A stretch of DNA of 19,758 nt from Candidatus Sigynarchaeum calidifontis (GCA_030587475.2 JAUQYZ020000033.1:1-19758); one strand, 5' to 3'; counted from the first letter of the stretch, positions 5,985 to 18,073 are shown. Translations and numbers: made by a program. The notes: a model not told the origin generated them from the sequence alone.

Positions 5985-6896
5985 TCAGGAGGATCTCGTC
6001 GCGCCACTTGTCATGATACGGCGCTGGTGCACCTTCAACGGGTACACGAGACCCAAGTACGTGAGGAAACAGAACACGGGGATCGAGGTCATCGCCAGAT
6101 AATAAAATATCTGGCGGGCTGCCCGTGCCTCTTGCGGCTCGAGCCCGATGCCTTGAATGTTGTGGATGATGTAGAAGACGAAGAAAAGCACGAGAGTCAC
6201 GCCCGCCAGGAACAGGGCATAGAGCCCGATCCGCTCCTCCTTCGACTTGGTCGCCCGCACGCTCCTCAGCGGTTTCACGATCAGCGCGACCATGTTGTAC
6301 AGCCCAATGATGATGACCGGCAGAGTCTCGATGATCGACTCGACGGCCGTGATTTTCACCCACACGGACTTCGTGAGGATCGCGAGGAACACGACCAGGA
6401 GCCCGAGGAAGACGAGCACCGAAATCCAGTTCTTGCGGATCTGGGCGCGATGAAGATCGTTTGCGTCCACCGGATAATGGAGCCCGTTCTCGAATATCTC
6501 GAGCGTGAACAGGACCCAGTTTATCATTGCAAGCACGGTGAAGATAAAAATAGACCGGTTCAAGAAATCGTTCAGCAGCGTGTTAAAATAAGCAAACTCG
6601 ACGAGAAGGGAGATTGACAGCAGCGTGATGAAGGCGACGAATGCCATGATGAGGATCCGGATCGTTATTGATGGCCGCTCCCTGTATCGCTTGACCAGGT
6701 TCAGCACCAGCACGACGGTCACGACGATCGAAACCGAAAAGTTAATGATGGCCGCATAATCGATGAAATCCCACGGTTCTTGTATGATCGATTCGTATAT
6801 CGATGGTGTCCCGAGCACGATCGCCATGACCACGATCCAATACGAAAGAATGCCTATCCAGGAAAACTTCACGACATTTAATGTCTGGCTGGCCAT
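5985..6896 (-). CDS. Integral membrane protein, about 8 TM helices (1+7), unknown function
   Basis: 303 aa with eight hydrophobic stretches separated by basic loops (KRYRERP, KSKEERIG) and ending in YLGLVYP. Confidence 0.85.
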   Translation of the reverse strand: MASQTLNVVKFSWIGILSYWIVVMAIVLGTPSIYESIIQEPWDFIDYAAIINFSVSIVVTVVLVLNLVKRYRERPSITIRILIMAFVAFITLLSISLLVEFAYFNTLLNDFLNRSIFIFTVLAMINWVLFTLEIFENGLHYPVDANDLHRAQIRKNWISVLVFLGLLVVFLAILTKSVWVKITAVESIIETLPVIIIGLYNMVALIVKPLRSVRATKSKEERIGLYALFLAGVTLVLFFVFYIIHNIQGIGLEPQEARAARQIFYYLAMTSIPVFCFLTYLGLVYPLKVHQRRIMTSGATRSS

Positions 6897-7198
6897 CCGC
6901 GTCTATCTCCTTGCAAACTCGATTGGCAATGATCCTCGGATTGATATTAAAGCCTATTTGCAGCGAGGTAAACATGCCCCTCGGAATCTTTTTTATCCCG
7001 CGTGGTCGAGAGTTGCACCATGACAACGATCCGGGTGGGAATGTTGCGCGTCGCCGGGATAGATCTCGCCCGGCCAACCCGGCATGGAGGTTAGGGATTA
7101 AAGATGCTGCATGCGAGCGTCCAGCAAGCACATGCAACCTTCATAATTTCATCGATGATGGATCAACAATTAAGCCAATTTTAAGCAAAGCGAACGGC

Positions 7199-9160
7199 AT
7201 GGATCATATCAACAGAGCCCTTCCCACCGAAGGGCACACCCCGATGTACGTGATGCACAAGTACTTCGCGCGCAAACAACAAGACGTGATAAGCGAGTAC
7301 ATCAAGCATTATTCGAAAGAGGGGGATATCGTGCTCGACCCGTTTTGCGGGAGCGGGGTAATGATCGGCGAGGCACTCAAGCTCGGCCGGAAAGCTATCG
7401 GCGTGGACATAAACCCGGTCTCGATCTTCATCACGAGGAACACGATCAAGCACGTTGATGGTGATAAAATCATCGAGGAATTCAAGAACATCGAAAACGA
7501 CATCAGCCAGGACATCAACAGCTTGTACATTACCACTTGCAGGGAATGCGAAAAACTGGGCAAAAAAACCCGGCTTCCCGCCACTTGTTTCACGTGGAAG
7601 GGAAAAAGCCTCGTGGACGTGCGATACGAGTGCAAGCACCATGAAAAATCCAAGATCATCAGTCCCGTGAATGAAGACGACTTGAAATTGCATAATGACG
7701 TGTTGAATGGGAAGATGGATGCGTTTTTTGATAAATCAGGAGCTTGCAAGTACTGGTACCCCACGAATCGTTTCTACTATCGCGATGGTACCCCCTTCTT
7801 GAAAAAGGAAAGGTTCGAATCGGTTGACCAGCTCTTCACGAAGCGAAACCTCGTCGCACTTGCCAAGTTACGCGACCGGATCGAGAAAATAACCGATGAC
7901 GAATCGCGCGAATCGTTCAAGTTCGCCTTTTCTGCATTGACACACCTGGCATCAAGCATGACCCCCGTACGGCCCTCCCGTCCCTTTAGTTCGGCGTGGG
8001 TGCAGCAAAGTTATTGGAAGGCTCCCCATTTCATGGAATCGAACGTGTGGTACTTGTTCAAGCGGGGCGTGATGGAGCGGCAAGGGCTACTAAATGCCAA
8101 GCGGGACATCCCGGACGACTTCGCGTCCAAGAAAGAAGCCAAGGACCTCGACCAGTTGATGAGCAGTCCATCCCACCACTATCTCCTCGAGCTCTCCGCC
8201 AATGCTGCATTGAAAGGCTTGAAAGATAACAGCATCGATTACGTGATCACGGATCCGCCTTATGGCCATTCCATCCAATACGGGGAACTACTCTTCATGT
8301 GGGGCTGCTGGCTCAAGTTGATGGACAATTTCGACGAGCTAGCGAGGGGGGAGATCGTTGTCAATCCACGGCAGAGAAAGGACAAGGACGATTACGAGAA
8401 GGGATTAAGACAGGCCTTCCAGGAAATCTATCGCGTGCTGAAACCAGGAAAATATTGCACGGTCACATTCCACAATCCCGCGCTGGTGTACAGGAACATG
8501 CTCTTCAAGTCAGCCGTCCTGGCGGGGTTCACGTTCGAAAAGGTCATCTACCAGCCACCGCCCAGGCCATCCGCGAAGAGCCTCTTGCAGCCATTCGGAT
8601 CGCTCGAGGGGGATTATTTCTTCCGCTTCAAGAAATCCGAGGCCAAGGGCGAGCAAAAATTTGAATTGGCGGACGAGAAACGGGTTGAATCGTTGATTGT
8701 CGGGATTGCGGAAAGGATCATTGTCGAGCGGGGCGAGCCCACGAACTACACGTTCATCCAGAACTCGATCGACCCGATCTTGTACGAGGAATTGAGCAAA
8801 AGAGGAATGCTCATCTCATTTAATCCGACCAGCGTGCTCGATATCTTGAAAAAACACGTGGGAGAAACCTTCCGGCTCGTCAACGGGAATGGCAAGGACA
8901 GGCGGCAACAGTTATTGGCATCGGGATGGTGGCTCGCAGACCCGAACAAGTACAAGATCGAGATCCCGCTCGTGAAACGGGTTGACGATGCCATCGTGAA
9001 CTTGCTGCGAGAGAAAGGATCCGCCACGCTGGCGGAGGTGTTGACCGATGTCTACACGCGCTTCCAGGATGCATTGACCCCGGAATACCGCGCGATTCTC
9101 GAAATCTTGAAAAAACGTGCGATCCGATCGGGCGACAGATGGTCGTTAAAACCCGAATAA
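7199..9160 (+). CDS. Adenine-specific DNA methyltransferase with Zn-ribbon insert (COG1743-like), orphan
   Basis: N-terminal HKYFARK, SAM-binding VLDPFCGSG...GVDINP, a CREC...C...C insert, catalytic IDYVITDPPY, EIYRVLKPG and a helical C-terminal region. Start moved to ATG 7199 (MDHINRAL, 653 aa) because the 6881 start overlaps the divergent gene. Confidence 0.9.
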   Translation: MDHINRALPTEGHTPMYVMHKYFARKQQDVISEYIKHYSKEGDIVLDPFCGSGVMIGEALKLGRKAIGVDINPVSIFITRNTIKHVDGDKIIEEFKNIENDISQDINSLYITTCRECEKLGKKTRLPATCFTWKGKSLVDVRYECKHHEKSKIISPVNEDDLKLHNDVLNGKMDAFFDKSGACKYWYPTNRFYYRDGTPFLKKERFESVDQLFTKRNLVALAKLRDRIEKITDDESRESFKFAFSALTHLASSMTPVRPSRPFSSAWVQQSYWKAPHFMESNVWYLFKRGVMERQGLLNAKRDIPDDFASKKEAKDLDQLMSSPSHHYLLELSANAALKGLKDNSIDYVITDPPYGHSIQYGELLFMWGCWLKLMDNFDELARGEIVVNPRQRKDKDDYEKGLRQAFQEIYRVLKPGKYCTVTFHNPALVYRNMLFKSAVLAGFTFEKVIYQPPPRPSAKSLLQPFGSLEGDYFFRFKKSEAKGEQKFELADEKRVESLIVGIAERIIVERGEPTNYTFIQNSIDPILYEELSKRGMLISFNPTSVLDILKKHVGETFRLVNGNGKDRRQQLLASGWWLADPNKYKIEIPLVKRVDDAIVNLLREKGSATLAEVLTDVYTRFQDALTPEYRAILEILKKRAIRSGDRWSLKPE

Positions 9161-9568: not shown

Positions 9569-9583
9569 CGAAATCCTTATATT
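9569..9583 (+). promoter_or_regulatory. Archaeal BRE/TATA promoter of the dnaK operon
   Basis: CGAAA (9569-9573), TC, CTTATATT (9576-9583); same layout as the hsp20 promoter. Confidence 0.7.
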
Positions 9584-9606
9584 CTCGCGTTGCTCATAGT
9601 TGGTTA

Positions 9607-9621
9607 GCAACTTGTGGTTGC
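9607..9621. promoter_or_regulatory. Putative Phr/HSR1-type heat-shock operator GCAAC-N5-GTTGC
   Basis: Perfect palindrome GCAAC-TTGTG-GTTGC starting 24 nt after the TATA box, near the expected TSS. An overlapping degenerate copy GCTCAT-N5-GTTAGC lies at 9592-9608. Confidence 0.75.
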
Positions 9622-9675
9622 ATACCAAAACTTAGATCATTGTTATTCACATATCACATTACAAGGTGAAAAGAA

Positions 9676-11574
9676 ATGACGGATAAATTGCACAAAGAGA
9701 AGATCGTGGGTATCGACCTCGGGACATCGAACAGTGCTGCCTCCATCATGATCGGGGGCAAGCCCGTTCTGATCCCGGCGGCGGAGGGCACGACCATCGG
9801 CGGTGGAAAAGCTTTTCCTAGCTTCGTTGCATTCACCAAGGATAAGAAAGTCCTCGTTGGAGAACCGGCCCGGCGCCAGGCAATATCGAACCCGGAACGC
9901 ACGATCACGGCAATCAAGCGAAAAATGGGTACGGATTACAAGGTCGAAATCGACGGCAAGAAATACACGCCCCAGGAAATTTCGGCGATGATCCTCCAGA
10001 AGATCAAGGCGGACACTGAGGCGTACTTGAACGAGCCGGTGACGAAAGCGGTCATTACCGTGCCGGCATATTTCAATGATGCACAGCGCACTGCCACGAA
10101 GGATGCCGGGCGCATCGCCGGCCTCGACGTGGTTCGCATCATCAACGAACCAACCGCAGCTGCCCTGGCTTATGGCCTGGACAAGAAAGGAAAGAACATG
10201 AAAATCGCCGTGCTTGACCTCGGTGGTGGAACGTTCGACGTGACCATCATGGAACTCGGCGATGGCGTGTTCGAGGTCATCTCCACGTCGGGCGACACGC
10301 AACTCGGTGGTACGGACATGGACCGGCTTATCATGGAGGACCTCGCCCGCGAGTTCAAGCGCAAGCACAACATCGACTTGCTGGCCGATCCGACCGCGAA
10401 ACGGCGATTGCTCGAGGCGGCGGAGAAAGCCAAGATCGAGCTATCTAGCGTGTACAGCACGCAGATCAACCTGCCATTCATCTCGCAAGACGCAAGCGGC
10501 CCGAAGCACTTCGACATGGAATATACGCGGGCAAGGCTCGAGGAAGTTATCTCGCCCGTACTAGACAGGTTAGATGCGCCGATGAAACGTGCCCTCGCGG
10601 ACGCGAAGCTTAACGCCAGCCAGATCGACTCGGTCATCCTCATCGGTGGCCCGACACGCATGCCTTGCGTGCTCGAGCGGTTCGAGAGGGTGTTCGGCAA
10701 GAAGGCAGAACGAGGCGTCGATCCCATGGAAGCGGTAGCCATCGGTGCTGGCATCCAGGGAGCTGTCCTGGCGGGAGACGTGAAGGACGTCCTCTTGCTT
10801 GACGTCACCCCCCTGTCTCTTGGCGTGGAAACGCTGGGCGGGGCGTTCACGAAGCTCGTCGAGCGCAACACGACCGTGCCCGTGAAAAAATCGCAAGTGT
10901 TCTCGACCGCTAGCGACAACCAGACATCCGTGGAAATTCACATTTTGCAAGGAGAGCGCCCGCTGGCTAAGGACAACTTTTCGCTCGGCAAGTTCTACCT
11001 GGACGGCATCCCGCCCGCCCCGCGCGGCCTCCCGCAGATCGAGGTCACCTTCGAGATCGATGAAAATGGCATCTTGCAAGTCACTGCCAAGGATCTCGGC
11101 ACGGGAAAGGACAAGTCGATCCGCATCGAGGGCACGAAGAAGCTCTCCGAGGAGGAGATCAAGAGGGCCCAAGAAGACGCGGAACGGAATAGGGAGGCCG
11201 ACGAGCGCGTGCGCGAGACGATCCAGAAGCGAAACGAGCTCGATTCCATGACATACCAGGCCGAGCGGCTCATGAAGGAAAACGCGGCGAAGCTCGATAG
11301 CGGGCTGCGCGACCGGCTCGTGAAGGCGCTGGACCATGCCCGGGACGTCGTGAAATCGAAAAGTGATAACATCCGAGAGATCGACGAGGCGCGAGCCGAG
11401 CTGGAGAAACCATTGCACGAGTTCGCCCAGAAATTGTATGCGACGAAGGGCAGCGCGAATACAGCGGGTGGCGATGTCGGGCCATCATACGGCTCGAGCG
11501 ATGCCGACCCCGTGTATGGCCCGGGAAGCACGAGCAAGGGCGACGATGGAGCGGTCGACGCGGAATTCTCTTGA
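9676..11574 (+). CDS. dnaK: Chaperone DnaK (Hsp70), archaeal/Gram-positive type
   Basis: Motifs [61 protein letters not shown] and C-terminal DAEF. It lacks the ~23-aa Gram-negative insert. SD AGGTGA lies upstream. Confidence 0.99.
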
Positions 11575-11614: not shown

Positions 11615-11672
11615 CCATTGAGGAGATCTAAGGGAATGAAAGATAAGGCGTGAAAAAACGAGCCAACTGGTG

Positions 11673-12707
11673 ATGTTGGTGACGACGAAAAAAGATTATT
11701 ACGAGATCCTCGGGGTGCCCAGGAACGCGACGAAGGAGGAGATCAAGCGCGCCTTCAGGAAGCTGGCAAGAAAATACCACCCGGACGTGAATCCTAACGA
11801 TCCCACCGCGTCTGAGAAATTCAAGGAGATCAACGCTGCCTACATGATACTCGGGGACGACAAGAAAAGGGAGATGTACGACAAGTTTGGCGTGGTAGAT
11901 GGCGAACCTGGAACGTATCCAGGCGCGAATGGCGGCTGGCCAGGTGGCGCCCGGGTCTACCAGGGACCAGACGGGACCACGTACTATTACACGACGTCTG
12001 GTGGCATCCCGGATTTCGATTTCAGCGAGATCTTCGGGGGCAGTCGAAGATCATCCAGGCAAGGCAGTTCGGGCCATGGTGGATTCGACTTTTTCAACGA
12101 CCTGGGAGATATATTTGACGTGTTTAACCGGGGCAGTGCAAGCACGAGGGCCCGGGGCCCTCGCACGAGCATACCCCGGGAAGGCGAGGATCTCCGCTAT
12201 GACATGGAGATCGACTTCATGGATGCCTTCACGGGCGGCGAGCGCCAGATCACCTTCAAGGATCCCTCGACGGGGAAGCCCCGGACGATCACCGTGAAAA
12301 TCCCGGCCGGCGTGCAAGATGGACAAAAATTACGACTGGCCACGCTCGGCATGCCCGGGGAGAATGGAGGCCCGCCAGGCGACCTGTACATCGCGGTCCA
12401 CGTGCGTCCGAGACCAGGATTTGACCGGAAGGAAAACGATGACGTGTCGGTCGTTGCCGAGATCCCTTTCACCACGGCCGTGCTCGGCGGGAAGGTGAGC
12501 GTGCAGGGCATCGATCGCACGCTCACGGTCACTGTCCCGCCCGGGACGAAGGATGGCACGACATTGCGGCTCAAGGGCCAGGGTTTCACGAAATTGAAAC
12601 AAAATGAACGTGGGAACTTGCTCGTGGACATCCACGTTCAAGTTCCAGACAAGATCAACTCGAAACAGAGAAAACTATTGGAGGAATTACGAAATGTTGG
12701 GCTATAA
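11673..12707 (+). CDS. dnaJ: Class II J-domain protein (DnaJ/CbpA-like, no Zn finger)
   Basis: J domain DYYEILGV...KYHPDVN...YDKFG, G/F-rich linker with DIF-like motifs and C-terminal domains (GEDLRY, KIPAGV, GDLYI, VPPGT, LKGQG). No CxxCxGxG repeats. Exact start uncertain (11670/11673/11679). Confidence 0.93.
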
Positions 12708-12737: not shown

Positions 12738-15392
12738 ATGATGAAAATGGACGATTTCACGATCAAGGTGCAAGAAGCATTGCTCGCGGCGCGTTCGCTT
12801 GCACAGCAGCGCGATCACCCCTACATCGAACCGTTGCACGTGTTGAAAGCGCTGCTTGACCAGCAAGACGGCATCGCGAGGCCCTTGCTCGAAAAGCTTG
12901 GAACGCGCGTTGCTGCAGTGAACCAATCGATCGAGGGAGAACTCAAGCGAATCCCGACGGTGCACGGATCGGGCGCGAGTGATGTCGCTATTTCGAGAGA
13001 AACGGCGAGTCTTTTCGATGACGCGTGGAAAGAAGCGAGAAATCTCAAGGATCGCTATTTGAGCAGCGAGCATCTGCTATTAGCAATGGCTGAAAACAAG
13101 GGTACACCAGTCCAGCGCGTGCTTTCCGCGCATGGCATCACCAAGGATCGCATCATGCAAGCACTCGTCAGCGTGCGTGGTAGCCATGCAATCAATGATC
13201 AAGATCCAGAAAGCAAGTACCAGGCCATAGAGAAATATGCCAAGAACTTGACAGATCTCGCGCGGCGTGGTAAAATCGATCCCGTTATCGGGCGCGACGA
13301 CGAGATCCGCCGGGTTATGCACATCCTCTCGCGACGAACGAAGAATAATCCCGTGCTAATCGGCGAGGCCGGGGTGGGTAAAACGGCGATCGTCGAGGGC
13401 CTTGCCCAGCGGATTGCAAACGGCGACGTGCCGGAATCGCTCAAGAACAAGGAACTGGTAGCCTTGGATCTCGGCGCGATGATAGCAGGGGCAAAATATC
13501 GCGGCGAGTTCGAGGACAGGCTCAAGGCCTTGCTCAAGGAAGTCGAGAAATCCGACGGGCGATATGTATTATTCATCGACGAGCTGCACACGCTCGTGGG
13601 GGCTGGCGCGGCGGAGGGAGCCATCGACGCGTCGAACATGCTCAAGCCAGCCCTCGCCCGTGGCGAGTTGCGTTGCATCGGCGCGACGACCATCAAGGAA
13701 TACAGGAAACACATCGAGAAAGATGCTGCATTGACGCGCCGATTCCAGACCGTGCTGGTCGAGGAACCCAGCGTGGAAGACACGATCGCGATCCTCAGGG
13801 GTCTCAAGGAGAAGTACGAGGTGCATCACGGGGTTCGAATTTCCGATGCCGCCGTGATCGCGGCGGTCACGCTGTCGCACAGGTACATCACGGACCGGTT
13901 CTTGCCCGACAAGGCCATCGACTTGATGGACGAGGCCGCGTCGCGCTTGCGCATAGAAATAGACAGCATGCCGACGGAGATCGACGAGTTGGAGCGGCGC
14001 GTGATCCAGCTCGAGGTAGAGAAGCAAGCGTTGCTCAAGGAACAAGACCCGGCGTCAAAGGAACGCCTTGGCAAGATCGAGGAGGAACTCCACGAATTGC
14101 GTGAAAAAGGAGATGCACTCAAGCTACAATGGCGGAACGAGAAGGAGATAATCTCCAAGATTGGAGAGGTGAAGAAACAAATCGATGCTGCCAAGATGGA
14201 GGCCGAGCAAGCCGAAAACGAGGGAAACCTCGGTCGTATGGCGGAGCTGCAATATGGCGTCATCAGCGGCTTGCAAAAGGAGGTAGACCGCCTTGCCGGC
14301 GAGCTAAAGGCCATCCAATCGACCAAGAAAATGCTGAAACAAGAGGTCGACGAGGAGGACATCGCCAACATCATCTCGCAATGGACGGGCATACCTGTTT
14401 CGCGGATGCTGGAAGGCGAGAAAGCTAAACTACTCCACATGGAAGAACGTCTCGCACGTCGCGTGGTCGGGCAGGATGATGCCCTTCGCGTGATTTCAAA
14501 CGCGATCCGCCGGTCTCGAGCGGGCATCCAGGACCCGAACCGTCCAATCGGTACCTTCATATTCATGGGGCCAACCGGCGTGGGAAAAACCGAAACCGCG
14601 AAGGCACTCGCGGAATTCTTGTTCGACGACGAGAATGCCATGATCCGTATCGACATGAGCGAGTACATGGAGAAACATGCAGTCGCGCGGCTCATCGGGG
14701 CACCCCCAGGTTATGTCGGTTATGACGAGGGAGGATTCTTGACCGAGGCCGTGCGCAAGCGGCCATACTCGGTCGTGTTGTTCGACGAGATAGAGAAGGC
14801 ACACCAAGATGTTTTCAACGTGTTGCTCCAGATCCTCGATGATGGCCGCCTGACCGATGGTCACGGGAAAACCGTCGATTTCAAGAACACGATCATCATC
14901 ATGACCAGCAATATCGGGAGCGATCTCATCCTCGAATCGATGGAGCGAGGAAAGGATGGGCAGCTGGACCCGGGAACGATCAATACACTCTTATCCCGGT
15001 ACTTCCGGCCCGAGTTCTTGAACCGCATTGACGAGGTCATCGTGTTCAAGTTCCTCAACGAGGCTCGAATCCAAGCAATCGTGGACATCCAGATCCAGAG
15101 GTTGAACGCATTGCTGGCAGATCGCAAGCTCGAATTAGTAATAACACCCGAAGCAAAACAATTCCTCGCAAGACAAGGTTTCGATCCGAAATTCGGCGCG
15201 CGGCCTCTCAAGCGCGCGATCCAGAACTTCGTGCAGAATCCCTTGGCGAAACGCATCTTGGAAGGCGAGCTCGAGGCGGGCGACACTATCGAAGTCGTGT
15301 TGGACACGTCGAAACAGCAACTCGCGTTCAAGCGGATCAAGAACGCCATGAATGGCGAACGGAACAAGCGAGGTGAAACCCGATCGAAATGA
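12738..15392 (+). CDS. clpB: ATP-dependent disaggregase ClpB (Hsp100)
   Basis: Clp N-domain, NBD1 ([15 protein letters not shown]), a long coiled-coil middle domain, and NBD2 ([36 protein letters not shown]). No IGF ClpP-docking loop. Confidence 0.98.
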
Positions 15393-15523
15393 TGATGAAA
15401 CGTGAATTCGGGCTGGGTTTATATGCCCCCCGTACCATCACCTTTTCATTCCAATGTTGCCAATCTTCACTTGGCAACGTTGACCATGACAAAGACCATT
15501 GCGAATGGAAAAAATGCGGGTGA
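15389..15523 (+). CDS. Putative 44-aa Cys/His-rich small protein
   Basis: Hand translation: [48 protein letters not shown] overlap with the clpB stop, GAGGTGA at 15370-15376, and stop 6 nt before the next ATG. Confidence 0.35.
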
Positions 15524-15529
15524 AGAGAC

Positions 15530-16252
15530 ATGTCTGGCAATGAAGAGGAAGATGATTGGTTTTTCGACATCCTGGGCAACGATGTCCGTCGCAAAATCAT
15601 TCAAATGCTTTCTCGCGGCCCCACATCCATGAAACAGTTCACGGACGCGGTGAACGTGTCCCGGCAGGCCATACTCAAGCAGCTAGAACAGATGCAAGTC
15701 AAGGGTCTCGTCGAGTCGCACGACATGGAACTCGATGGGGACGAGAAGCGAAAGGGGCCTCCGGCCCGCGTGTATAACTTGACCAAGTTTTTCAAGATCG
15801 AATACGAGGTGAACCCGAGTTTCACAGAACCCCTTGTCACGAGGCTTTATTTGCTTCCAGGCGAGATAAACAAAACGAAACTCGATGATGAAGAGTTAAA
15901 GAAAAAATATCCGACAGATATCAGGGAATGTTTCAAGGATCTCGCGCAGATCGACTCGAACATTCAAGAATTACAAAACAAGCACAGGGAACTCTACCAG
16001 AAAAAGGTTGAATTGCTCAACCGGCTTCGATCTCGCATCGATCAGAGTTTCGACGAGAAGGAAGAGAAGGAAATCTTGTTATACATGCTCGCACACCCGG
16101 CACGGTCTCTGGAGGGGATGCGCGTTTCCGAACTTGCATCGGTGGTCCCGCTTCGCAGGGATTTTCTGGATGCAGTTCTCACGAGCTTGCAAAAACACGG
16201 GTATATCGAGCGAAAAGGTGAGATGGTACGCATCAAGGCAAAAAATGAATGA
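15530..16252 (+). CDS. Phr/HSR1-like archaeal heat-shock transcriptional regulator (ArsR-type wHTH, coiled coil, C-terminal HTH; COG1777-like)
   Basis: FDILGNDVRRKIIQML...VSRQAILKQL...GLVES...KGPPARVYNL parallels Pyrococcus Phr as recalled (LDVLGNETRRRIL...GRPRKYY). A heptad coiled coil and a second HTH-like segment follow. SD GGTGA at 15519-15523. Confidence 0.8.
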   Translation: MSGNEEEDDWFFDILGNDVRRKIIQMLSRGPTSMKQFTDAVNVSRQAILKQLEQMQVKGLVESHDMELDGDEKRKGPPARVYNLTKFFKIEYEVNPSFTEPLVTRLYLLPGEINKTKLDDEELKKKYPTDIRECFKDLAQIDSNIQELQNKHRELYQKKVELLNRLRSRIDQSFDEKEEKEILLYMLAHPARSLEGMRVSELASVVPLRRDFLDAVLTSLQKHGYIERKGEMVRIKAKNE

Positions 16253-16257
16253 AAACA

Positions 16258-16761
16258 TCACCACGGGGGGAAATCACCAGCCGTTGCACCAATCCAACCA
16301 GTTCCCCTGCAGATGGGGCACCGGGATCCCGTACTGAACGAGATGCCTTGCCCGCGGCAAGCCGGGCAAGCCGCTTCCACGCGCGTCCCGAATCCTGGAC
16401 TGAATGGCGGGTCAAAATGCCAGGTTGATGCAACATTTTGCCGAATGCCCCTGTAAACGTGCACGACACGTGTCGAATGGCTCGCTTTTTGGCAGCGATC
16501 ATGCTGCACCCTCGTGCCGACCACGGATGCGCGACGCTTTTCGATCGCAGCATCGTACGCCCGGCGCTCGCGGGCATCGCTCAAGATATCGTAAGCGTTA
16601 TTTAGCAAGATGAAACATTCTTGCGCATGAACGTCACCGGGATGTAAATCCGGGTGGCATGCTTTCGCTTTCTCCTTGAATGACCGCTTGATCTCGTCCA
16701 GGGATGCGTCTCTGTCGACCCCGAGGATCTTGTAATAATCTTCGTTGCTCAAGTGAACCAC
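16258..16761 (-). CDS. Small J-domain protein with C-terminal DnaJ-type zinc finger (two CxxCxGxG repeats)
   Basis: DYYKILGV...CHPDLHP...AYDILSD...RRAYD J domain, then CPACRGQG and CPICRGTG. No substrate-binding C-terminal domain. Start GTG 16761 or TTG 16752. Confidence 0.85.
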   Translation of the reverse strand: MVHLSNEDYYKILGVDRDASLDEIKRSFKEKAKACHPDLHPGDVHAQECFILLNNAYDILSDARERRAYDAAIEKRRASVVGTRVQHDRCQKASHSTRVVHVYRGIRQNVASTWHFDPPFSPGFGTRVEAACPACRGQGISFSTGSRCPICRGTGWIGATAGDFPPW

Positions 16762-17015: not shown

Positions 17016-17366
17016 TCACGATAACTTGATGTCGACAGCATTGTCGAGGGGATTCTTGAATTTTCCCTTGATAAGGAGCAAGCCATGCTCGTACTTCGCC
17101 TCGATGGAATTCACGTCCATTTCGTAGGGGAAGTATTCGGTAAGGAGGTATTGGGTGTGCTCGCGCGTCGCCCGCAAGTCGAACATGTCAGGAAGCACGC
17201 GGAGCCGGACATTCTCCTTTGGAACCCCTGGCAATTCCACACGGGCGTTGTACTCGCCGGTCTCGCAATCGAAATCCGCGCTGTAATACGGGCGGATCCG
17301 CCAGTAGATCTCCTCGTCTGCCTTTTTTTCGACTATGCTCGTTTCTTTCGCTTTTGCTTCAACCAT
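17016..17366 (-). CDS. hsp20: Small heat-shock protein, single alpha-crystallin domain
   Basis: VELPGVPKENVRL, IEAKYEHGLLLI and C-terminal IxI-like VDIKL. SD GAGGTG at 17373-17378. Confidence 0.9.
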   Translation of the reverse strand: MVEAKAKETSIVEKKADEEIYWRIRPYYSADFDCETGEYNARVELPGVPKENVRLRVLPDMFDLRATREHTQYLLTEYFPYEMDVNSIEAKYEHGLLLIKGKFKNPLDNAVDIKLS

Positions 17367-17413: not shown

Positions 17414-18073
17414 TCAGAGCTTGATCTCCTTCGCATCGTCCAGCGGATCGTGGATGACCGCATGGATTTTCAGCAAACCGTTGTAATATTCAGCTGTCGT
17501 CTTTTCAGGCACGATGTCAACACCAAAGCTGAGGTTTGCCGCGTATTCCAGATTGTCCTTCGGGCGCACCGCGCTCACGTGGAACCAGGATGGAAGCACT
17601 TTCAGCTCGATGTCTTCCTTCTTGACGCCAGGGATGCTCATTTCTACCTTTATCTTCTTGGCATCATAATCAGTGTCGCGGTAGACCCGCGGGAAGATCT
17701 GGTAGAACTTCTCGTTCTTGTAGTCCTTGTCACGCTTCATGACCGTGAACGCTTTCTCGAGTGGGTTGTATCGCTCGAACTCGACCCGGAGAAGCCCTTC
17801 GGTGTAATCGCTGGTCACCTTCGTCGGCTCGATGCGGAAACTCAGGTCCAAATCGAGGGTGTAAACGATGTTGTCGCGCTCGGCGCGCAAGGTGAAATAA
17901 TCTTCCATGGCCTTCATTTTAATAGCTTCTTTTGGCACGCCGGGCAAAGCAATCTCGAGCACGAACTTGTTGTCGTGTAACCATGCACCATAGCGGGGCG
18001 TGACCTTGTATTTGGGTTGTTCCTTCGCTTCTTGGATGTCTTTTGGTTTTTCAGCCGATTGTACAAGAGCCAT
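17414..18073 (-). CDS. hsp20: Small heat-shock protein with two tandem alpha-crystallin domains
   Basis: Domain 1 IALPGVPKEAIKM...SDYTEGLLRV; domain 2 MSIPGVKKEDIEL...AEYYNGLLKI...KEIKL. Start ATG 18073 chosen from SD GAGGTG at 18081-18086 (219 aa). Confidence 0.9.
   Translation of the reverse strand: MALVQSAEKPKDIQEAKEQPKYKVTPRYGAWLHDNKFVLEIALPGVPKEAIKMKAMEDYFTLRAERDNIVYTLDLDLSFRIEPTKVTSDYTEGLLRVEFERYNPLEKAFTVMKRDKDYKNEKFYQIFPRVYRDTDYDAKKIKVEMSIPGVKKEDIELKVLPSWFHVSAVRPKDNLEYAANLSFGVDIVPEKTTAEYYNGLLKIHAVIHDPLDDAKEIKL

Follow-up and report, generated by a model that had tools for sequence, protein, structure and literature searches.

Chaperone promoters of a Sigynarchaeia-like Asgard genome carry an inverted repeat, GYAAS-N5-STTRC, which is probably a heat-shock operator of the Phr/HSR1 type, bound by dimers of two winged-helix regulators (PhrA and PhrB) and working by the same mechanism as Phr and HSR1. 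The assignment was made by comparing sequences and predicted structures. The operator would serve four units, namely dnaK-dnaJ-clpB-phrA and an hsp20 gene in the window, an hsp20-cdc48-phrB operon on contig C149, and a canonical hsp20 gene on contig C104, the last with a weaker site; in each, the repeat coincides with the predicted transcription start, 15-24 nt past the TATA box.

The window and its genes

The window, which is the whole stretch of DNA analysed (19,758 bp), is the entire contig C184 of a MAG estimated to be 89% complete with 5% contamination. This assembly (G000) comprises 4.99 Mb in 269 contigs, with 54% G+C. Close homologues of the window proteins carry the labels Candidatus Sigynarchaeota, Sigynarchaeum springense, Lokiarchaeota or Promethearchaeota, which makes the source an Asgard archaeon. 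The genes that concern us are the following:

9676-11574, plus strand: dnaK (Pfam HSP70)
11670-12707, plus strand: dnaJ (Pfam DnaJ/DnaJ_C)
12738-15392, plus strand: clpB (Pfam Clp_N/AAA_2/ClpB_D2-small)
15530-16252, plus strand: phrA, which closes the dnaK run and encodes the Phr/SurR-like winged-helix regulator PhrA (240 aa)
16258-16761, minus strand: gene for a J-domain/zinc protein (Pfam)
17016-17366, minus strand: second small HSP20-like ORF, after hsp20, with 27% identity to the 17414-18073 gene
17414-18073, minus strand: hsp20-family gene (Pfam HSP20, E 7e-11), start ATG at 18073-18071, preceded by GAGGTG

A WD40 protein is also encoded on the minus strand (Pfam), and the region 6881-9160, directly 5' of the dnaK promoter, encodes a protein of 759 aa that has N6/N4 DNA-methylase domains. 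The order dnaK-dnaJ-clpB-regulator is kept in the related loci L041, L043 and L044 and in genome G003, and the regulators on contigs sharing this order are 59-77% identical to that of the window.

Palindromes in the dnaK and hsp20 promoters

The original prediction had described similar palindromes in the dnaK and hsp20 promoters, each at nearly the same distance from a CGAAA/TATA element, and their positions, the promoter elements and the distances (24 nt past the last TATA base for dnaK, 23 nt for hsp20) were all confirmed in the sequence. The promoter features of the two units are:

9569-9583, plus strand: predicted BRE/TATA of the dnaK operon, CGAAA-TC-CTTATATT (CGAAA 9569-9573, CTTATATT 9576-9583)
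9589-9593, plus strand: upstream dnaK half-site GTTGC, past the TATA box and ahead of the predicted start
9604-9624, plus strand: dnaK operator TTA-GCAAC-TTGTG-GTTGC-ATA, over the predicted transcription start (core 9607-9621; GCAAC 9607-9611, TTGTG 9612-9616, GTTGC 9617-9621)
18266-18252, minus strand: distal copy of the hsp20 operator, GCAAC-GTGGG-ATTGC, preceding the hsp20 TATA box by about 50 nt
18205-18191, minus strand: predicted BRE/TATA of hsp20, CGAAA-TA-TTTATATA (CGAAA 18205-18201, TTTATATA 18198-18191), kept in L041 and L044
18182-18177, minus strand: extra upstream hsp20 half-site TGCAAG
18168-18154, minus strand: proximal hsp20 operator GCAAG-CATCG-GTTGC (GCAAG 18168-18164, CATCG 18163-18159, GTTGC 18158-18154)

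In the dnaK promoters of four lineages TTAGYAAC-N5-GTTGCA is retained, with the spacers TTGTG, CGATG, CAATG and AAAAT and with diverged flanks, and an A/T-rich TATA box stands at the matching place in the orthologues. The conserved layout reads TATA-N5/6-GTTGC-N8-TGGTTA-GYAAC-N5-GTTGCA. It includes a third half-site that the original prediction had not listed, at 9589-9593, which is GTTGC in L041 and L043 and ATTAC in G003, with unchanged spacing. Together with the left operator arm (9607-9611) this half-site forms GTTGC-N13-GCAAC; the dnaK promoter thus contains two overlapping inverted repeats with a common central half-site. At position 2436 of L043, a metagenome contig, the public dnaK gene call starts at an ATG within the operator CAATGGTT and yields 652 aa; the relatives have their start further downstream, which is probably true of this gene as well.

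The proximal hsp20 operator is an imperfect palindrome, the inner base of its left arm being G. The arrangement TGCAAG-N8-TGCAAG-N5-GTTGCA, which takes in the extra half-site, is common to the hsp20 promoters of the window, L041 and L044 (three lineages). The distal copy has the shared form GCAAY-N5-ATTGC in the same three promoters, being GCAAT-ATAAG-ATTGC in L041 and GCAAC-GAGTA-ATTGC in L044. All of these relatives are close kin from few lineages, and the conserved footprints do not represent many independent events.

A second geometry in the regulator's own promoter

Another element beyond the original prediction, a perfect palindrome, was found upstream of phrA:

15439-15448, plus strand: conserved CACCTTTTCA in the phrA upstream region, possibly a weak TATA box
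15456-15478, plus strand: perfect palindrome GTTGCCAA-TCTTCAC-TTGGCAAC, starting 7 nt past CACCTTTTCA

In an alignment of seven orthologous phrA regions the arms GTTRCCAA and TTGGYAAC are retained and the 7-nt spacer varies; the full 8+8 palindrome occurs a single time in the genome. Read as 5-mers the element is GTTRC-N13-GYAAC, which matches the dnaK half-site at 9589-9593 together with the left operator arm, and in both promoters the N13 array begins 5-6 nt past the (putative) TATA box. No conserved N13 arrangement was seen in a comparison of five hsp20-cdc48-phrB promoters. The two geometries could conceivably be split between the two paralogous regulators, or a C-terminal wHTH might take the third half-site.

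A repeat resembling the phrA palindrome, GTTACC-N11-GGCAAC, is present at C50:848-870 of G000 (L059), some 50 nt before a 97-aa ORF and beside a gene for a Ras/Roc-family GTPase. The 97-aa ORF has no Pfam match, and this candidate was left out of the regulon.

Genome-wide search for the operator

The 4.99-Mb assembly has two exact matches to GCAAC-N5-GTTGC and five to GYAAC-N5-GTTRC. The pattern GCAAS-N5-STTGC, with which the original prediction had proposed to scan the genome, gave 57 matches, mainly GCAAG...CTTGC within ORFs, and was too loose to be diagnostic by itself. It was replaced by GYAAS-N5-STTRC combined with a TATA filter, and by position matrices; relatives often have T at the second base, as HSR1 does. 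The first TATA filter missed the dnaK promoter, and its counts are unusable as statistics. Spacing counts gave no signal either, the N5 spacing having 5 matches genome-wide against about 8 for other spacings, which is no over-representation; the operator signal is one of location, not of count.

For an independent ranking, a matrix was built from sites of other genomes only, with the spacer zeroed, and both strands of G000 were scored. The best three matches were the dnaK site (23.6 bits), the hsp20 site of the window (21.8 bits) and a site before an operon on contig C149 (20.6); matches ranked after these fall inside long ORFs. The C149 site, GTAAC-TTGAA-GTTGC, was also found by the pattern and TATA scan, 17 nt past the TATA box GTTTATAA. 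The operon that it precedes (L047, 4000-7774) has three genes:

start at about 4108: hsp20, 228 aa
4822-7050: cdc48, 742 aa
7085-7774: phrB, 229 aa

Operon and operator are shared by five lineages; five orthologous hsp20-cdc48-phrB promoters keep GYAAC-TTGAA/TAAAA-GTTRC, with regulators down to 38% identity. A weaker site, the imperfect palindrome GCAAC-TTGAA-ATTGC, lies on C104, 16 nt past the TATA box ATTTTAAATA. It was the best intergenic match outside the training set in an earlier matrix and precedes a canonical HSP20 gene (PF00011, E 3.7e-24). In G001, a genome of the same genus, one of the three exact matches is GTAAC-CTGAA-GTTGC, 15 nt past the TATA box of a 178-aa HSP20 gene, which we take to be the counterpart of the C104 gene by its similar length and domain content. 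Measured from the predicted TATA box, the sites start after 15-24 nt, or after 30 nt in L054, which agrees with the distance usual in archaea between TATA box and transcription start; the starts themselves are predicted from sequence.

A search of the 500 nt preceding each of five Cpn60/TCP1 genes, grpE, the J-domain gene and two other HSP20-like genes gave no site. The expectation that the operator would be enriched at chaperone promoters was therefore borne out for dnaK, three hsp20 units and cdc48, and failed for the thermosome and grpE. The 500 nt before a second dnaK copy (C229) do not contain the operator either, and the second dnaK of G001 and of G002 lacks it too. In G000 this copy is split over two contig ends (C229:11932-13236 and C27:6670-7236), the parts being 83% and 69% identical to the window dnaK; it is either a paralogue under different control or a sign of a mixed MAG. 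Two further candidates were left out of the regulon: C74:22090, which lies just past the end of a gene and is followed by nothing but a spurious ORF of 70 aa, and C6:30787, which has no TATA box.

Related loci in other genomes

A pattern search for related loci on genome contigs gave only G002 and G003, the patterns being too specific. The more distant G002 encodes a regulator 37% identical to that of the window, with the same recognition helix. Its dnaK and hsp20 promoters both carry TAATTGGTAAY-N5-GTTACCAATAA, namely TAATTGGTAAC-GATAT-GTTACCAATAA before dnaK and TAATTGGTAAT-TGTAA-GTTACCAATAA before hsp20, the second base of the half-site being T. Since both promoters carry this related N5 site, a second lineage pairs dnaK with hsp20 in the same way.

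The region upstream of cdc48-phrB in G003 yields no promoter, as the cdc48 N-terminus is replaced there by unrelated coding-like sequence. At L049 6560-6860 (G003 C1:3410559-3410859) the N-terminal domain of cdc48 is lost with no intergenic gap and the PhrB-like ORF reads 508 aa; the junction is probably a scaffold misjoin.

The arrangement small gene, cdc48, Phr-like regulator recurs in other families of the same taxonomic order, at L076-L082 (G006, G011, G016, G018, G021, G031 and G040). Regulators of family f2 have the helix VSKQAIKKHL, and xxAAC-N5-GTTGx lies upstream of the cluster in two genomes; those of family f4 have ISRQAVHSQL, and two genomes (L080 and L081) show a different inverted repeat close to the TATA box, TGACA-N9-TGTCA or the inverse of it. 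Because these helices and sites differ, the operator described here appears specific to the VSRQAILK family, though the operon layout is older.

The regulators PhrA and PhrB

The regulator at 15530-16252 proved to be a genuine homologue of Phr. Searched against the PDB with phmmer, PhrA matches Phr (2p4w) over residues 7-167 with E 2.6e-8 and SurR (PF0095) with E 4.4e-5. Its AlphaFold model, made with 32 homologues (pLDDT 80.5), starts with a wHTH that has a long beta-wing (residues 5-93); a helix spanning 131-173 links this to a second, wHTH-like domain at the C-terminus (177-235). In a Foldseek search 2p4w was the top match (E 5.9e-8), followed by SurR (1.2e-7), with SurR chains at ranks 3-8 and no other strong matches.

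The homodimer prediction for PhrA passed, scoring 0.64 against 0.00 for the best control. Among the calibration proteins, 20 of the 30 with structures solved as pairs reached the pass mark, as did 1 of the 23 with structures solved as single chains. Contacts agreed between runs to at least 70%, and the partner had a pLDDT of 70. The predicted interface is an antiparallel pairing of the long helix (130-169). This modelled dimer may reflect the likeness of PhrA to the solved dimers of Phr and SurR.

PhrA and PhrB of C149 are 29-30% identical, and PhrB matches SurR (E 7e-13) better than Phr. In the tree, a dnaK-linked clade A and a cdc48-linked clade B separate with full support, and the G002 regulator sits on a long branch between them. 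[quoted passage not shown] An alignment with Phr upheld the noted difference in the recognition helix, which is VSRQAILKQL in the window regulator and VGQKAVLEHL in Phr (PDB 2p4w); within clades A and B the helix VSRQAILK is invariant. As this helix is common to both clades, the half-site cannot be assigned to one paralogue. The claim that the palindrome is the cognate site of the window regulator stands only in part: that protein is a Phr homologue, but the C149 paralogue with the same helix closes an hsp20-cdc48 operon bearing the same operator.

Proposed mechanism and alternative explanations

We propose that dimers of PhrA and PhrB, each encoded in one of the four units, bind the operator with one N-terminal wHTH per arm, the arms lying one helical turn apart. 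The repressor over the start site would admit TBP/TFB and exclude RNA polymerase, as Phr does, and heat would free it from the operator. Both regulators would be under negative autoregulation, since both are encoded in operator-bearing operons. The mechanism of Phr and HSR1 is the most likely one because the core, the spacing, the predicted position, the classes of target genes and the autoregulatory layout all match.

That the dnaK and hsp20 promoters resemble each other by chance is scarcely credible. The abundance of the loose pattern and the lack of over-representation of the N5 spacing would agree with chance, but half-sites and spacing are kept in orthologous promoters, the sites take the top three ranks of a matrix built from other genomes, and further hsp20 promoters of G000 and G001 carry the site; for the first two of these reasons the resemblance is not accidental. 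The palindrome might instead be bound by an unrelated factor, of which there is no shortage (each search of the genome gave 11-20 first-look wHTH candidates), or be a lineage-specific core-promoter element, the Phr-like neighbours being coincidental. This is improbable, as AAC-N5-GTT is the published core of the homologous HSR1 and SurR sites (PMC9133787, PMC12162507), two operator-bearing units encode Phr homologues in the autoregulatory layout of Phr and HSR1, and a core-promoter element would not be limited to three or four chaperone promoters. More improbable still is action as RNA, by a 5'-UTR hairpin that alters mRNA stability or serves as a thermometer. The dnaK palindrome can form a 6-bp hairpin, and the hsp20 leader has, from +3, a conserved 10-bp stem on the minus strand, in which AAGCATCGGT (18166-18157) pairs with ACCGATGTTT (18121-18112). 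In three sequences compared, every pair of this stem is maintained, with one change compensated on the other side and two that are one-sided. The operator spacer and some of the arm bases fall within the stem, which may explain why that spacer is conserved and could account for part of the conservation of the site. However, the consensus fold of hsp20 leaves the ribosome-binding site free, shuffled sequences fold as well as the dnaK leader does (z -0.53), no Rfam family matches within the window, conserved inner-base mismatches (GCAAG/GTTGC and GCAAC/ATTGC) disrupt pairing, and the half-sites recur in the N13 arrangement. The conserved distal copy of hsp20 cannot work as RNA, because it lies upstream of the promoter and is not transcribed.

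A division of labour, in which PhrB reads the N5 palindrome and PhrA reads GTTRC-N13-GYAAC, so that the reported palindrome would not be the cognate site of PhrA, is possible if unlikely. It would fit the restriction of the conserved N13 arrangement to the dnaK and phrA promoters, the uniqueness of the 8+8 form, the two clean clades each linked to one operon type, and the fact that an hsp20-cdc48-regulator operon with an N5 site is the layout of HSR1. Yet the invariant recognition helix means that half-site choice does not separate the paralogues, the hsp20 gene adjoining phrA has N5 sites only, and in G002 (78% complete) only one regulator was found, with N5 sites at both dnaK and hsp20. The fuller scheme, with PhrB reading GYAAC head-to-head (N5, over the start), PhrA reading it tail-to-tail (N13, between TATA box and start) and the dnaK operon carrying both, is rather unlikely. 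Were it true, two heat-shock inputs would be integrated at dnaK-dnaJ-clpB and a single one would act on the sHSP and cdc48 units, a two-tier heat-shock circuit arising from a duplicated Phr/SurR-like regulator in an Asgard lineage.

The preferred reading, binding of one operator type by both regulators, would provide a small and defined candidate regulon for an Asgard lineage, made up of four target units under a common operator consensus, together with two candidate repressors. It would also place the DnaK-DnaJ-ClpB set, which is typical of Bacteria, under a predicted archaeal TATA promoter and a predicted archaeal-type repressor.

Comparison with known systems

HspR/HAIR and HrcA/CIRCE are bacterial repressors of dnaK operons that act on an inverted repeat at the promoter of their own operon, with negative autoregulation. 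The present system is like them in that a candidate repressor is encoded in the dnaK operon and an inverted repeat stands at the promoter of that operon; it differs in that HspR (MerR-like) and HrcA belong to unrelated protein families and act at bacterial sigma-dependent promoters.

SurR, which regulates the sulfur response of the Thermococcales (PF0095; 2quf/2qlz), has the long motif GTTn3AACn5GTT with the recognition motif GTTn3AAC, and two wHTH per monomer (PMC12162507). The likeness to the regulators described here lies in the N-terminal wHTH, the helical linker and the C-terminal wHTH, and in a long motif that also contains AAC-N5-GTT and three half-sites. Unlike SurR, these regulators have no CxxC redox switch, and their putative targets are chaperones rather than hydrogenase or sulfur genes. 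In the promoters that we read, no conserved GTT-N3-AAC was seen, the arrangements being AAC-N5-GTT and GTTRC-N13-GYAAC.

The only dedicated heat-shock regulators described in archaea are Phr in Thermococcales and HSR1 in Archaeoglobus (PMC9133787, PMC10653856), and our literature search found no description of an Asgard heat-shock regulator. Phr occupies some 29 bp across the start site, requires TGGTAA there and blocks RNA polymerase from joining TBP/TFB; in these relatives, repression is lost at higher temperature (PMC9133787). Phr of Pyrococcus furiosus (PF1790, 2p4w) is the best match of PhrA in both sequence and fold, with an ArsR-like wHTH at the N-terminus and a long dimerising helix. 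Its site lies over the start, where the sites described here are predicted to lie. Its target genes, namely hsp20, an AAA+ ATPase gene and its own gene, have counterparts among the putative targets here, and the variant TTGGTAAC of G002 contains TGGTAA, the element that Phr requires at the start site. The differences are the identity of about 20%, the helix SRQAILK in place of GQKAVLE, the extra C-terminal wHTH-like domain, and the published Phr site, a 29-bp region with TTTA, TGGTAA and AAAA elements rather than GYAAC-N5-GTTRC. Thermococcales are not known to have DnaK or ClpB.

The closest parallel in motif and layout, on which this comparison was made, is HSR1 (AF1298) of Archaeoglobus fulgidus, which binds CTAAC-N5-GTTAG, regulates itself and shares an operon with cdc48 and hsp20 (PMC9133787). 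The AAC-N5-GTT core with 10 bp from centre to centre is the same, and the C149 operon consists of the same three gene types. A regulon with dnaK, hsp20 and cdc48 but without the thermosome and grpE agrees with the reported Phr and HSR1 regulons (PMC10653856). It differs from that of HSR1 in the addition of dnaK-dnaJ-clpB, in the two paralogous regulators, in the N13 geometry and in the distal copies. In the operator, the outermost base is G/C here and C/G in HSR1, and the second base here is Y. The original prediction had spoken of a candidate new operator with GC/GC flanks; a palindrome shared by heat-shock promoters is indeed there, but only its outermost base differs from CTAAC-N5-GTTAG, the second base often being T. 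Judged by gene content and operator sequence, the system belongs to the Phr/HSR1 kind, and the operator is a variant of a known one rather than new. What is new is the Asgard lineage, a regulon that includes dnaK-dnaJ-clpB, the duplicated regulator, the SurR-like second wHTH without the redox switch, the N13 arrangement and the distal copies; the proposed mechanism is the known one, so that range and wiring are extended rather than the principle.
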